Source: Candidatus Latescibacterota bacterium | GTDB lineage: Bacteria; Latescibacterota; UBA2968; UBA8231 | NCBI GenBank assembly: GCA_964291625.2 | Contig: OZ220089.1 | Span: forward strand, 2,080,001-2,144,000 | Direction of reading: 5' to 3' | Length of the DNA stretch: 64,000 bases | In this document: positions 18,562 through 28,729 of the stretch, piece by piece | Position numbering within the stretch: position 1 is the stretch's first letter | Layout: each line of letters begins with the position of its first letter | Notes under the pieces: model-generated | Told to the model about the DNA's origin: nothing | The model's database searches: none | What the model saw: the letters and a program-made list of their open reading frames with translations, nothing else | Translations under genes and position numbers: made by a program

Positions 18562-18861
18562 TTACACGACTGACCAGTTCTTCCCATGCCAACTATCCTC
18601 TTCGCGACGCATCTGACCACCAAGTGCTTCCTTGCTGAGGCGGGTGACCTGGACGTTGTGCCGATTCCGGCACATCAACTTGAGCACCTTGTCTTCCGGC
18701 CTGATCTTGCGCGAAATCTTGTCGAGCATACGGATCATCTCGGACTCCGGGAGATCACCCATGAATACCGAAGCCTGCTCGTGAATGAGGTACTCCTTGA
18801 GCAACTTCCTGTACACTTCCGTTCGGTGCGCGGGGACATCATAGCAGACCATTACAAACAT
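18562..18861 (-). CDS. cas2: CRISPR-associated endonuclease Cas2
   Basis: 99 aa from ATG 18861: MFVMVCYDVP...RKLLKEYL..EQASVFMGDL; follows cas1. Confidence 0.92.
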   Translation of the reverse strand: MFVMVCYDVPAHRTEVYRKLLKEYLIHEQASVFMGDLPESEMIRMLDKISRKIRPEDKVLKLMCRNRHNVQVTRLSKEALGGQMRREEDSWHGKNWSVV

Positions 18862-18865
18862 GCGG

Positions 18866-19834
18866 TCACCCTCTCCAGATGAACGGTTTGAACTCTCCGA
18901 TTCCGAGCGCCTCGCGCTCCAGTGACATGCACTGCCGGTAGATCGCCTGGCGCAGCGTCTCGCTCCCGCAACGTTCTTCGATACGCGACCAGAAGCGCTC
19001 CGTCGCTCTGATTCTGCCCTTCTCGCTGAGCAGACACACACCTGGTGTCCTGGTCCACCAGGAATCATCGACCTGACCACGCCTGAACGCCGAGAGGATG
19101 AGGGCGTCGGACAGTACCGGGCGAAAGGTCTCCGCCATGTCGATCGACAACGACCGCCGTCCCGTCCCCGGCGCATGGAGAAACGAAACGCTTCGGTCCA
19201 GGTGGGTCTTCGCAAGCTCGTTCGCGCAAGCAGAATAGAGCAGCATGTTGAAAAAGGACATCAGGCAGTTCACCGGGTCGGGGGGCGGTCGGCGGATTCT
19301 GCGCTCCAGCTTGGCTTCCGGGCACACTCGGCCAAAGGAATCGTGCAAGAACGCTCGTGCCAGCCCTTCCGCTCCCATCAGTTCCTCGTGCGTGGAGGCC
19401 CGCTCGATCGCCTCACCGGCACTCTCAATCCCCTCCAGCACCGGATCGAGAGCGCTCGCCCCGTTGCGGCGATAGCGCTGCAGCAGCCCGCGCATCGCAC
19501 TGGCTTGCGCTCGTACGATGGCCTTCGCGATACGCATCCGCCTCCGTTCGTCCAGATACAGTTGCGCCTGCCCGATGCGGACTCGCCCCGAGGGTGTTTC
19601 CTCCTCCGGCTCGAAGGCGCCGAGGAATCTGCCCCCCGCGTCGAGAACGGTGAAGCGAATCCCCCGCCGCCCCATGTCCTTGAGCAGCCGAATCGAGATA
19701 GATCCCTCCCCCATGCACACAACGTGTTTGACGCCGTTCAGAGGAATCGCCTTGCGCCCGTCTTCGGATGTCACGACCAAGGCGTTCTCCCGGCGGTTCA
19801 AGCGTGAGTCCCGCGGGATGATGACCGTATCCAT
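18866..19834 (-). CDS. cas1: CRISPR-associated endonuclease Cas1
   Basis: ATG 19834; LMGAEG, RRPPPDPVNCLMSF, SFLH, SLSIDMAETFRP (catalytic E/H/E present). Confidence 0.95.
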   Translation of the reverse strand: MDTVIIPRDSRLNRRENALVVTSEDGRKAIPLNGVKHVVCMGEGSISIRLLKDMGRRGIRFTVLDAGGRFLGAFEPEEETPSGRVRIGQAQLYLDERRRMRIAKAIVRAQASAMRGLLQRYRRNGASALDPVLEGIESAGEAIERASTHEELMGAEGLARAFLHDSFGRVCPEAKLERRIRRPPPDPVNCLMSFFNMLLYSACANELAKTHLDRSVSFLHAPGTGRRSLSIDMAETFRPVLSDALILSAFRRGQVDDSWWTRTPGVCLLSEKGRIRATERFWSRIEERCGSETLRQAIYRQCMSLEREALGIGEFKPFIWRG

Positions 19835-19835
19835 C

Positions 19836-20381
19836 TCACTCTCCGTCCCAGCACAGCGGGTTGGCGCTACAGGCTTCGCAGAGACGAATCCGCACTGCTG
19901 GCGGAGGCGGACCCGTCTCAAGATCCGCGCTCTCCCGAGCATCCCTGATTAGTTGATCGAGCACTGCTTCGGTGATGTCGTAGCTGATCTTCTTCCGTGA
20001 GCCGTATACGTGAACCTCGGCGCTCCACGGGTCACCGGTGGCCCCCATCATGAACGCGGCGTAGAACAGCGCCTGCCGGGATACCGCATCTCCCCCCTTC
20101 CCACTGCCTTTCCGTTCGACCACCACTCTCCGCTCGAAATCAAGGGCGTCCGGCGCGATTCCGAGCCCCTTGGGAGCCTCACCCGGCCTTTTTTCCGTCT
20201 GGTGCAAGGCAAGTCCACGCTGCACCCGAGCATGGTGCACCGCATGCGTCGCCCCCATCAGATGCAGCCAAGCACGTCGACGGCACAGGGCCACGTGCTG
20301 GAAATAGAGCCCGTGCAGCTCGTACTTCTCGGCCAGCTCACGCAAATAGCGCGCTCTGCGAAGAATCCTCGTAGTCTTCAT
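19836..20381 (-). CDS. cas4: CRISPR-associated RecB-like exonuclease Cas4
   Basis: LCRRRAWL, PD...ExK, QxxxY, C-terminal CEACxxxxxC Fe-S cysteines. Confidence 0.9.
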   Translation of the reverse strand: MKTTRILRRARYLRELAEKYELHGLYFQHVALCRRRAWLHLMGATHAVHHARVQRGLALHQTEKRPGEAPKGLGIAPDALDFERRVVVERKGSGKGGDAVSRQALFYAAFMMGATGDPWSAEVHVYGSRKKISYDITEAVLDQLIRDARESADLETGPPPPAVRIRLCEACSANPLCWDGE

Positions 20382-27046: not shown

Positions 27047-27771
27047 AGGACGCCCCCCGCCCGACCGATACAGCCGAAGCCGTAGCGGTTCTTCTCGCCG
27101 ATACCGAGGGCCCAGGCGGAACCCAGGTCTTCAGCTCGTCCGCTGATGGTGAGCGGGCACATCATGCCGATGACGAAGGCCGGCTTGCCGCCGCTCACGA
27201 AGCGCGTGCGGATCAAGGTGGAGTGCTTCGGGTTGGCGCGCAGGTAAAGGCTGTCGGGCGCGATCTTCAATTGCACTTTGCGGCCGGTCAGGCGCGAGAG
27301 TCGGTAGTTCACGGCTTCCTCCAGGCCTGGTCCGACCTTCCTCAGGTCATCATGCCAGCGTCCTTCCTCGCCGCGGACAGAAAGCGCCAGGGGAGAGAGC
27401 ATGATCGCCGGCAGGGAGGCCGTTGCGTCTGGCTGACAAACAACGGGCAACTCCTCGACGGAGATGTCCCAGGCGGACAGATCCACCACATCGCCATTGA
27501 CTGAGGTCTTGCGGACGGTCTCAGGGGACAACGCGGGCAGCACGGGTTCAAGGGGCGCCCCCTCGGCGCCAACCACCACGGACTTCAGCACAAAGCCCCT
27601 TGGAGACGCTGTTCCAACTGCGCCAAAGGACCAGTTGCCGGCGGTGCGCCCAACCACATCCTCGCCACGGGCGCCGCAGGTGGTCCAGGCGTTGACGAGA
27701 GCGCCATGCAAACTGTCCATGAACCACAACCGGACCCGCTCGCCCCGGGGCGCCGAGAATCTGACTCTCAT
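27043..27771 (-). CDS. cas6: CRISPR-associated endoribonuclease Cas6
   Basis: ATG 27771 (MRVRFSAP); C-terminal glycine-rich loop GIGEKNRYGFG; stop overlaps cas10d GTG. Confidence 0.88.
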   Translation of the reverse strand: MRVRFSAPRGERVRLWFMDSLHGALVNAWTTCGARGEDVVGRTAGNWSFGAVGTASPRGFVLKSVVVGAEGAPLEPVLPALSPETVRKTSVNGDVVDLSAWDISVEELPVVCQPDATASLPAIMLSPLALSVRGEEGRWHDDLRKVGPGLEEAVNYRLSRLTGRKVQLKIAPDSLYLRANPKHSTLIRTRFVSGGKPAFVIGMMCPLTISGRAEDLGSAWALGIGEKNRYGFGCIGRAGGVL

Positions 27772-27801
27772 GGGGTTCTCTCTCGCGACTCGCGATGAAG
27801 A

Positions 27802-27861
27802 AAGTTGACAGAGGAACATGCGCTTATCAAGATACTCTGTCAACTTGCAAAATATGCAAGT
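27802..27861. promoter_or_regulatory. Divergent overlapping promoters / candidate WYL operator
   Basis: AAGTTGACAGAG (27802-27813) N21 CTCTGTCAACTT (27835-27846) perfect inverted repeat, TTGACA on both strands; second IR ACTTGCA-N5-TGCAAGT (27843-27861). Confidence 0.7.
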
Positions 27862-27901
27862 CATATTCTCCCAAGATAGTCCACCCCCCGGGGAACGGCC
27901 C

Positions 27902-28729
27902 ATGCAGCTTGGCAGGAGGGTAGCGCGTCGCTTTGCCGAGACGATGTTGTTCTGGCGAGGCCACCTTCAAGCAAGGGATGTCTGGGAGTTTCTGGGCGTC
28001 TCCGAGCGCACGGCACGCAGCCTGATTTCGGAGTGGCGCAAAGCCGGCATCCTTCCGCGTTACCGGGCGGCCTTTGGGCGGCGCCTGTTGCCGGCGGAAG
28101 AGTTCGTCCCCGGACCTGACGTGATCGATCCCAGAGTCGCCTTGTCCTTGCTTCTGTTGGCAGACCGACTGCCCGGGAACCCGTTTGCGGCCGTTGCACC
28201 TCCCGGAGGTGGCCACGATCTCGCGATCTCGGCTCTGACTTCCACCAAGGCCGCTCGGGCAGTATTGGCCGCCTGTCTCGACCGTCGAGCCGTCACCGTC
28301 ATCTACGCTGCAAAGACCGGACGGCAGGAGTTCGCCTTCAGCCCCTCGGCTGTCGTGCGCTCCCGGGGGCGGTACCACCTGCGGGGCTACAGGGCGGATG
28401 GAAGCGATGCCCTCGGGAATCGACTGGACGATCGCTACGTCGACATGGTGCCCAACCGTTCAATCGAAGCCTGGCCGACCCCAAGTGGCCACTTCGTCGG
28501 TCTGGACAACGACGACGAGTGGCATGCCTTCGAGAGACGGACCTTCTTCTTCTCCGCCGAGTTGTCCGACGAGGAGCGTCTCTGCTACGAGCACGAGTAC
28601 GGCATCGCAGATCTGGGCAAGCTTGTGATCAGGGAACGGCAAGCGCTGATGCCCTACGTAATGCAGGAACTCTCTGAGCGCCGTTGCTGGCGCCAGGACG
28701 GCACGCAGGTGCCGATCTGGGCGCTCTAG
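27902..28729 (+). CDS. WYL-domain transcriptional regulator (CapW/BrxR-like)
   Basis: N-terminal wHTH LFWRG.L...DV.EFLGVSERTA; Y.AK..RQE..FSPSAVV...GRYHLRGY; C-terminal ELSDEER...EHEYG...L.I.ERQAL..YV. Confidence 0.85.
   Translation: MQLGRRVARRFAETMLFWRGHLQARDVWEFLGVSERTARSLISEWRKAGILPRYRAAFGRRLLPAEEFVPGPDVIDPRVALSLLLLADRLPGNPFAAVAPPGGGHDLAISALTSTKAARAVLAACLDRRAVTVIYAAKTGRQEFAFSPSAVVRSRGRYHLRGYRADGSDALGNRLDDRYVDMVPNRSIEAWPTPSGHFVGLDNDDEWHAFERRTFFFSAELSDEERLCYEHEYGIADLGKLVIRERQALMPYVMQELSERRCWRQDGTQVPIWAL

Follow-up and report, generated by a model that had tools for sequence, protein, structure and literature searches.

A CRISPR-Cas locus on contig OZ220089.1 of a Candidatus Latescibacterota bacterium (assembly GCA_964291625.2) raises the question of whether a type I-D system with an I-B-like gene layout, strongly diverged effectors and a 28-nt repeat defines a distinct I-D lineage, as the initial annotation of this DNA suggested it may. 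The window, that is, the whole 64,000-nucleotide stretch analyzed (positions 2,080,001 to 2,144,000 of the contig; G+C content, 68.9%), contains a single CRISPR-Cas island spanning positions 14607–28729, in which the minus strand carries, in order, cas6, cas10d, cas7, cas5, cas3′, cas4, cas1, cas2, the leader and the array. This gene content and order had been proposed in the initial annotation and was borne out by the open reading frames (ORFs) and by the PADLOC profiles. The locus is very probably a type I-D system and a member of a Cas10d lineage found mainly outside the cyanobacteria. That lineage is already recognized by databases and outlined in print, and the locus is a well-preserved but ordinary representative of it.

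The large subunit (24086–27046, minus strand; 986 residues), described earlier as Cas10d-like and HD-bearing, matches the PADLOC Cas10_Id profile PDLC01534 with 774 bits, residues 11–976 aligning to positions 2–928 of the 934 in the profile, and no Cas8 profile in PADLOC matches it at E ≤ 0.01. Residues H83, H126, D127 and K130 of its N-terminal HD domain do not vary across the 52 diverse members of the family (52 of 52), and residues 23–292 match an HD-GYP domain (VIA-align, Z 7.5); HD catalysis is predicted from the sequence. An AlphaFold2 model built from 18 close sequences was unusable (predicted local distance difference test score, pLDDT, 53.9). A second alignment of 60 sequences, to which representatives of 18–37% identity from an exhaustive search had been added, gave a model with a pLDDT of 90.2 and a predicted template modeling (TM) score of 0.89. 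A Foldseek search with this model returned five matches at E ≤ 0.001, all of them Cas10d: 7sba_I (1.5e-13), 6thh_C, 7sbb_I, and chains A and B of 6yes. In VIA-align, the Cas10d chains scored Z 15.3 (745 residues aligned, model residues 12–970), 13.9, 12.6 and 12.5, and the next row was the HD-GYP domain. Among type I large subunits other than Cas10d, the Cas8c chain 8g9u_H came closest in Foldseek, with a probability of 0.18. Because the model and both structural comparisons match Cas10d and the HD domain lies on the large subunit, the Cas8b fold that would have spoken against type I-D was not found, and the large subunit, as modeled, is Cas10d and not Cas8b.

The C-terminus of Cas10d matches the Cas11d chain 7sba_J (Foldseek probability 1.0, TM score 0.66), and this part of the gene contains a putative internal cas11d (24086–24544, minus strand). 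Codon V835 is an in-frame GTG preceded by GGAGGTGA, and the product predicted from it is 152 residues long. All 29 close loci have a start codon at the aligned position (GTG in 25, ATG in 4), and GGAGG occurs within 20 nt upstream of it in 25 of the 29. Mapping reached three of six distant loci, two of which have an ATG two codons downstream of the V835 position with a GGAG-type site before it; no such internal start was seen in the third. The GTG and its GGAGG are therefore regarded as a putative Cas11d start, which fits the internal translation of Cas11d described for type I-D in a preprint (bioRxiv 10.1101/2020.04.18.045682). Three predicted proteins of 142–164 residues from other assemblies (P0199, P0213 and P0220) begin exactly at the V835-aligned position; gene callers therefore choose the internal start when it stands alone, and the three proteins may be contig-edge fragments.

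The remaining cas genes, all on the minus strand, encode proteins consistent with this assignment. The predicted helicase Cas3′ (20338–22386; 682 residues) matches Cas3d PDLC02032 with 387.5 bits and carries GSGKS and DEFH motifs as well as the DEAD, ResIII and Helicase_C domains of Pfam, with no HD domain, as had been claimed for it. Cas6d (27043–27771; 242 residues) contains the Pfam Cas6 C-terminal domain and scores 224 bits against Cas6d PDLC02045 compared with 26 bits against Cas6b. The Csc2- and Csc1-like repeat-associated mysterious proteins of the initial annotation could likewise be recognized: Cas7d/Csc2 (23059 to ~24063; ~332–334 residues, starting at M88 or M90 of a longer ORF) matches only Cas7d profiles in PADLOC (46 bits) and exceeds the cutoff of the Pfam Csc2 family PF18320 (38.6 versus 25.5 bits), and Cas5d/Csc1 (22396–23055; 219 residues), which has no NCBIfam or Pfam match, matches Cas5d PDLC01565 over its full length with 191.5 bits and has Cas5/Csc1 clusters as its nearest Atlas neighbors in a language-model look-up (score 0.95). 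Cas4 (19836–20381; 181 residues) has one N-terminal and three C-terminal cysteines and matches Cas4d with 137.6 bits and PF01930 with 56.9 bits. Cas1 (18866–19834; 322 residues) and Cas2 (18562–18861; 99 residues, with the start set by profile alignment) exceed the cutoffs of TIGR00287 (206 versus 71.7) and TIGR01573 (29.9 versus 24.5), respectively. The I-D matches in PADLOC are strong and span the full length for Cas10d, Cas3′, Cas6, Cas5 and Cas4.

All nine ORFs of the island, namely the eight cas genes and a divergent regulator gene of the WYL type, are open, and their homologues align with them end to end. This agrees with the earlier statement that the locus looks intact; judged by these ORFs and by the array, the island looks undamaged and is apparently working. 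The span originally assigned to the system, 18562–28729, holds all the cas genes but omits the array (14607–18351) and the leader (18352–18561); it does take in the WYL/helix-turn-helix (HTH) gene at 27902–28729, which had been left unmentioned.

To what extent the locus belongs to a wider group was addressed by searches with Cas10d. A word-indexed search found 263 homologues; among the 120 of them listed, identity to the query is never below 69%, and almost all derive from metagenome assemblies. The exhaustive search gave 204 cluster representatives at E ≤ 0.001; all 52 full-length representatives match the same two PADLOC Cas10_Id profiles, and 7 touch a TIGRFAM-type Csc3 profile. A scan of genome contigs with the single Cas10d protein produced 600 pattern matches, none of which was confirmed; repeated with a Cas10d alignment, the scan yielded 32 loci in metagenome-assembled genomes (MAGs; L002–L033) labeled as Binatia, Vicinamibacterales and other Acidobacteriota, Latescibacterota, Spirochaetia, Entotheonella, Thermodesulfobacteriota, Dehalococcoidia, Rhodothermales, and Alpha- and Gammaproteobacteria. 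The genes cas6, cas10d, cas7, cas5, cas3′ and cas4 occur in the order of the window in 32 of the 32 MAG loci, with a cas1 match in all 32 (short in several), cas2 in 30 and an upstream WYL gene in 28. Arrays are present in 31, the exception lying at a contig end, and the repeat is 28 nt long in 30 of these and 29 nt in the remaining one. It ends in ATCCC(C/T)ATG(A/G)GGGGTA(A/G)TGAG in the 28 close loci that have an array, and two distant loci with an array, whose Cas10d is 31–34% identical, have the same order and repeat type. Across MAGs labeled with at least 10 phyla, Cas10d is 52–75% identical. The same locus type is found on RefSeq plasmids of three cultured species, belonging to Thiothrix (L034), Roseomonas (L035) and Paracoccus (L036), where the Prokaryotic Genome Annotation Pipeline (PGAP) names Cas7 “type I-D Cas7/Csc2”, Cas10d and Cas5 “hypothetical protein”, and Cas3′ “DEAD/DEAH box helicase”. 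The shared gene order and repeat type define a coherent lineage.

Some variation within the MAG loci concerns the adaptation genes. The gap between cas4 and cas1 measures 1.2 kb in L002 (17080–18311) and 2.1 kb in L010 (17239–19393), compared with a few bases elsewhere, and the cas1 match is short in L005, L006 and L015. These gaps and short matches may reflect insertions or decay in the adaptation module.

In the window, the array (14607–18351, minus strand) comprises 57 repeats of 28 nt and 56 spacers, in agreement with the repeat length and spacer number first given. The repeat length is exact, since the outermost copy differs at one base, all 28 columns are otherwise invariant, and conservation does not extend into the flanking columns. 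Fifty-six of the 57 copies, for which 0 are expected by chance, are identical, and the sole variant is the outermost one at 14607, at the end distal to the cas genes. The leader is accordingly placed at the cas2 side and the CRISPR RNA (crRNA) sense on the minus strand, an orientation inferred from the position of this degenerate repeat far from the cas genes. In the crRNA sense the repeat reads GTTCCCGATCCCCATGAGGGGTAATGAG, and it is found nowhere else in the 5.9-Mb genome. The spacers are all different and measure 35–45 nt (mode, 38 nt). No spacer is common to two different arrays of the lineage. Duplicate spacers, often neighboring or regularly offset, occur inside the arrays of L002, L013, L014, L015, L016, L018 and L034, which suggests internal duplications within those arrays.

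The leader (18352–18561, minus strand), situated between cas2 and the first repeat, contains a 44-nt dyad element at 18507–18550 (minus strand) of the form TGCGC-N34-GCGCA. The dyad, with an inner AAAC motif, was found in 25 related loci, in 20 of which its distance to the first repeat is 73–76 nt, including cases where an insertion displaces it from cas2. A demonstrated RNA or DNA hairpin was considered for this element and rejected: 89% of cells are paired, but the variable pair 9/42 assorts independently, and base-pair covariation was not significant (the observed values were also reached in 22–34 of 500 shuffles). The dyad is retained as a conserved motif, which may be a protein-binding or integration-related site.

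A second conserved DNA element lies between cas6 and the divergent WYL/HTH regulator gene (27902–28729, plus strand), whose product scores 21.2 bits for WYL, slightly under the cutoff of 21.8. This divergent promoter region (27772–27901) contains a palindrome, TTGCAAAATATGCAA, at 27845–27859, which abuts a TTGACA box on its cas6 side, and a 19-nt inverted repeat (27802–27846) that overlaps the palindrome. The palindrome core, of the TGCAAAATTTGCA type, is conserved in 10 of 10 related loci whose cas6/WYL intergenic regions were aligned. The palindrome region is likely to be the operator of the divergent WYL protein. A sigma-70 scan found no promoter meeting its criteria in either the leader or the cas6/WYL region.

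Against the assignment of the locus to a preserved type I-D system stand several observations. The curated NCBIfam I-D models fail on it: the Csc3 (Cas10d) and Csc1 (Cas5) models give no match, Cas7 scores 32.7 bits against TIGR03157 (Csc2), under the cutoff of 38, and cas3_cyano and cas1_CYANO reach 59.2 versus 69.1 and 149 versus 385, respectively. A profile of 18 close Cas10d homologues had 0 matches among the sequences of the PDB, and profiles of Cas7 and Cas5 had only chance-level matches there (E ≥ 0.046), none to an I-D subunit; the folds proposed for Cas7 and Cas5 derive from hidden Markov models (HMMs) and a single language-model look-up. In PADLOC, the best matches of Cas1 and Cas2 are to the I-B types (Cas1b, 229.9 bits versus 147.6 for Cas1d; Cas2b, 66.7 versus 28.6 for Cas2d). 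In stability, the hairpin of the repeat does not exceed shuffled sequence (z −0.47). The leader is ~80 nt longer than in most relatives, which could affect adaptation, and its dyad is 155 nt from the first repeat. Neither a protospacer nor a protospacer adjacent motif (PAM) emerged from searches of the host, related loci, phages and plasmids (IMG/VR was not scanned with the spacers): the best match of the 56 spacers to the host genome was 20 nt exact and was counted as noise, 1101 spacers from 35 arrays of the lineage gave 0 matches of at least 26 nt to the host genome and all locus flanks, the array gave seven records in a phage collection, all at E ≥ 0.09, and against plasmids its matches were driven by the repeat and fell on related arrays, apart from two at chance level. 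No RNA run was found that covers the locus.

Some of these observations would be explained if the island were an inactive relic, transferred into this genome and now silent or unable to adapt. The long leader, with a dyad at 155 nt rather than ~75 nt from the first repeat, and the lack of protospacers in the collections searched are in keeping with such a state; decay, however, should show as degenerate repeats and broken genes, and the island has nine intact ORFs with conserved motifs, 56 of 57 repeats identical and 56 unique spacers, which makes a relic unlikely. Far less probable still is a type I-B system with a diverged Cas8b as its large subunit. The canonical type I-B order is cas6, large subunit, cas7, cas5, cas3, cas4, cas1, cas2; measured against this order, as it is usually drawn, the I-B-like layout noted initially is real, and the adaptation proteins are best matched by Cas1b and Cas2b. 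Yet the large subunit matches only Cas10d profiles and only Cas10d structures strongly, the Cas8c chain being a distant next among type I large subunits; it is the large subunit and not Cas3 that carries the HD domain; and Cas7, Cas5 and Cas6 all score best with “d” profiles.

A more serious alternative to an ordinary member of a known I-D branch is that the clade stands apart formally as an I-D variant of its own (a candidate “I-D2”), characterized by diverged effectors, I-B-like Cas1 and Cas2, the I-B order and a repeat of 28 nt that contains a 4-bp hairpin. The divergence claimed initially is strong, in that BLASTP finds no significant match of Cas10d, Cas7, Cas5 or Cas6 to the proteins of Synechocystis and the NCBIfam models are below cutoff or silent. 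Gene order is kept in 32 of 32 and repeat type in 31 of 32 MAG loci, including members with 31–34% identity, as well as on the three plasmids, and the phylogeny proposed as a check, in the form of a quick Cas10d tree, groups the 30 close sequences tightly in a single clade, whose long stem is fully supported. Neither an I-D split nor the name “I-D2” turned up when the 2025 classification paper (PMC12669027) was searched by term, and literature searches found the repeat core in no paper and no paper joining type I-D with sponge symbionts or with Thiothrix. On the other hand, full-length I-D profiles in PADLOC already cover the lineage, and RefSeq plasmids carry it. Moreover, a 2023 review (PMC10212523) divides Cas10d into four lineages, of which two are cyanobacterial, a third belongs mainly to other bacteria and the fourth is mainly archaeal, and reports that the I-D groups differ in effector gene order, notably in where cas3′ and cas6 lie. 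The traits that define the mechanism, i.e., the HD domain on Cas10d, the split Cas3′ and the putative internal Cas11d start, are canonical, and repeat length and gene order alone are not normally enough for a variant. A formally distinct variant is thus possible but doubtful, and the same tentative standing applies to the proposal that the clade merits its own variant name on account of its I-D effector chemistry, I-B order, I-B-like Cas1 and Cas2, compact 28-nt repeat and two conserved DNA elements of a regulatory kind not described before, the leader dyad and the palindrome at the cas promoter. If it were a separate variant, the clade would be a living link between types I-D and I-B and an unusually mobile form of I-D. 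Of the initial suggestion of a distinct I-D lineage, the coherence of the lineage therefore stands, whereas its newness does not.

With the locus taken as an ordinary type I-D member of this known branch, its occurrence in the Latescibacterota points to acquisition by transfer. The cas10d gene was found in 5 of 168 genomes of the phylum, all five in one family, in 0 of 9 other genomes of the same genus, and in none of 40 relatives. The G+C content at third codon positions (GC3) is 0.75–0.79 in the cas genes compared with 0.90–0.97 in most neighboring ORFs. In the Cas10d tree the phyla are intermixed within the tight clade: one Spirochaetia and one Binatia sequence are sisters with full support, and the window adjoins one Spirochaetia and one Binatia sequence with weak support. 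From the patchy occurrence, the GC3 and the intermixed phyla, the island appears to have been acquired by transfer. Some ORFs other than cas genes also have a low GC3 of 0.77–0.81 (3832–5163, 6497–7438, 34553–35338 and 41421–42290). The flanks consist of ordinary chromosomal genes, including those for a WD40 protein, MFS transporters and a GDSL lipase, and the 15 flanking ORFs scanned yielded no integrase or transposase domain. The WD40 beta-propeller gene (12922–14526, minus strand) adjoins the far end of the array; a 126-nt tandem repeat of 2.9 copies within it (13792–14152) corresponds to WD40 blades.

By analogy with the I-D systems that have been studied, the array would be transcribed from the leader beside cas2, and Cas6d would cut each 28-nt repeat 3′ of a 4-bp CCCC/GGGG hairpin, leaving a 5′ handle of 7–8 nt ((G)UAAUGAG). 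The crRNA, with a spacer of ~37–38 nt, would then assemble with Cas7d, Cas5d, Cas6d, Cas10d and the small subunit Cas11d, the last of these translated from the internal GTG within cas10d. Binding of the complex to PAM-flanked DNA would lead to R-loop formation, after which the HD-less helicase Cas3′ would be recruited and the HD domain of Cas10d would cut the DNA. Cas1, Cas2 and Cas4 would insert new spacers at the leader end, and the conserved palindrome is probably the site through which the divergent WYL protein represses the cas promoter.

The locus itself holds little new biology; it is a well-preserved member of an I-D branch not yet studied at the bench. The curated models of NCBI miss the signature proteins of this branch, and RefSeq genomes, even those of cultured species, list Cas10d and Cas5d as “hypothetical protein”; such loci are therefore easily taken as new or left untyped. 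The branch seems to move freely between distant phyla while keeping its gene order, repeat and regulatory motifs, which makes it a good case for the transfer of CRISPR systems as whole modules, and the combination of an I-B layout and I-B-like Cas1 and Cas2 with I-D chemistry bears on the proposed path from type I-D to other type I systems. The branch is testable in cultured hosts, among them Thiothrix fructosivorans ATCC 49748, the strain that harbors one of the plasmids.

Among characterized systems, the I-D locus on plasmid pSYSA of Synechocystis sp. PCC 6803 (7SBA, 7SBB) has the same gene set, with the HD domain on Cas10d and an HD-less Cas3′. Its Cas10d is the chain with the highest VIA-align score noted above, and both proteins have a Cas11d-like C-terminus with an internal start, a putative one in the window; a divergent WYL regulator and an array downstream of cas2 are also common to the two loci. 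The order differs: pSYSA has the divergent WYL gene followed by cas3′, cas10d, cas7d, cas5d, cas6, cas4, cas1d and cas2, whereas in the window cas6 comes first and cas3′ follows cas5. The repeat is 37 nt with a period of 72 nt in pSYSA and 28 nt with a period of ~66 nt in the window. What the initial annotation had stated about Synechocystis, namely that cas3′ comes first, that cas6 follows csc1 and that the repeat is ~37 nt long, was thereby confirmed. BLASTP between the two systems gives matches for Cas3′ (23% identity over 274 residues, E 2e-6) and Cas1 (27.5%, E 1e-29). More generally, the window falls outside the cyanobacterial I-D clade, as represented by the “CYANO” equivalogs of NCBIfam, in model cutoffs, gene order and the ~37-nt repeat. 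The Cas10d of Sulfolobus islandicus (6THH, 6YES), which is of an archaeal lineage, has a similar fold (Z 12.5–12.6) at 12–13% identity. With type I-B the window shares the profile affinity of Cas1 and Cas2, but type I-B has Cas8b and an HD-bearing Cas3, whereas the HD domain of the window is on Cas10d and Cas3′ has none.

The closest counterparts in cultured organisms are the loci on plasmids pTfr153 of Thiothrix fructosivorans (NZ_CP072750), p1318-7 of Roseomonas marmotae (NZ_CP061098) and NZ_CP040759 of Paracoccus liaowanqingii, which have the gene order of the window, although the Paracoccus locus is without cas4, cas1 and cas2. Thiothrix and Paracoccus have the upstream divergent gene annotated as WYL, Roseomonas as hypothetical protein. 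The repeats are 28 nt long in Thiothrix and Roseomonas, a conserved core of 20 nt was recovered in Paracoccus, and the plasmid repeats share with the window the core TCCCCATG(A/C)GGGGT and the ending GAG. The plasmid Cas10d proteins are 32–35% identical to that of the window, and these loci are plasmid-borne whereas that of the window is chromosomal.

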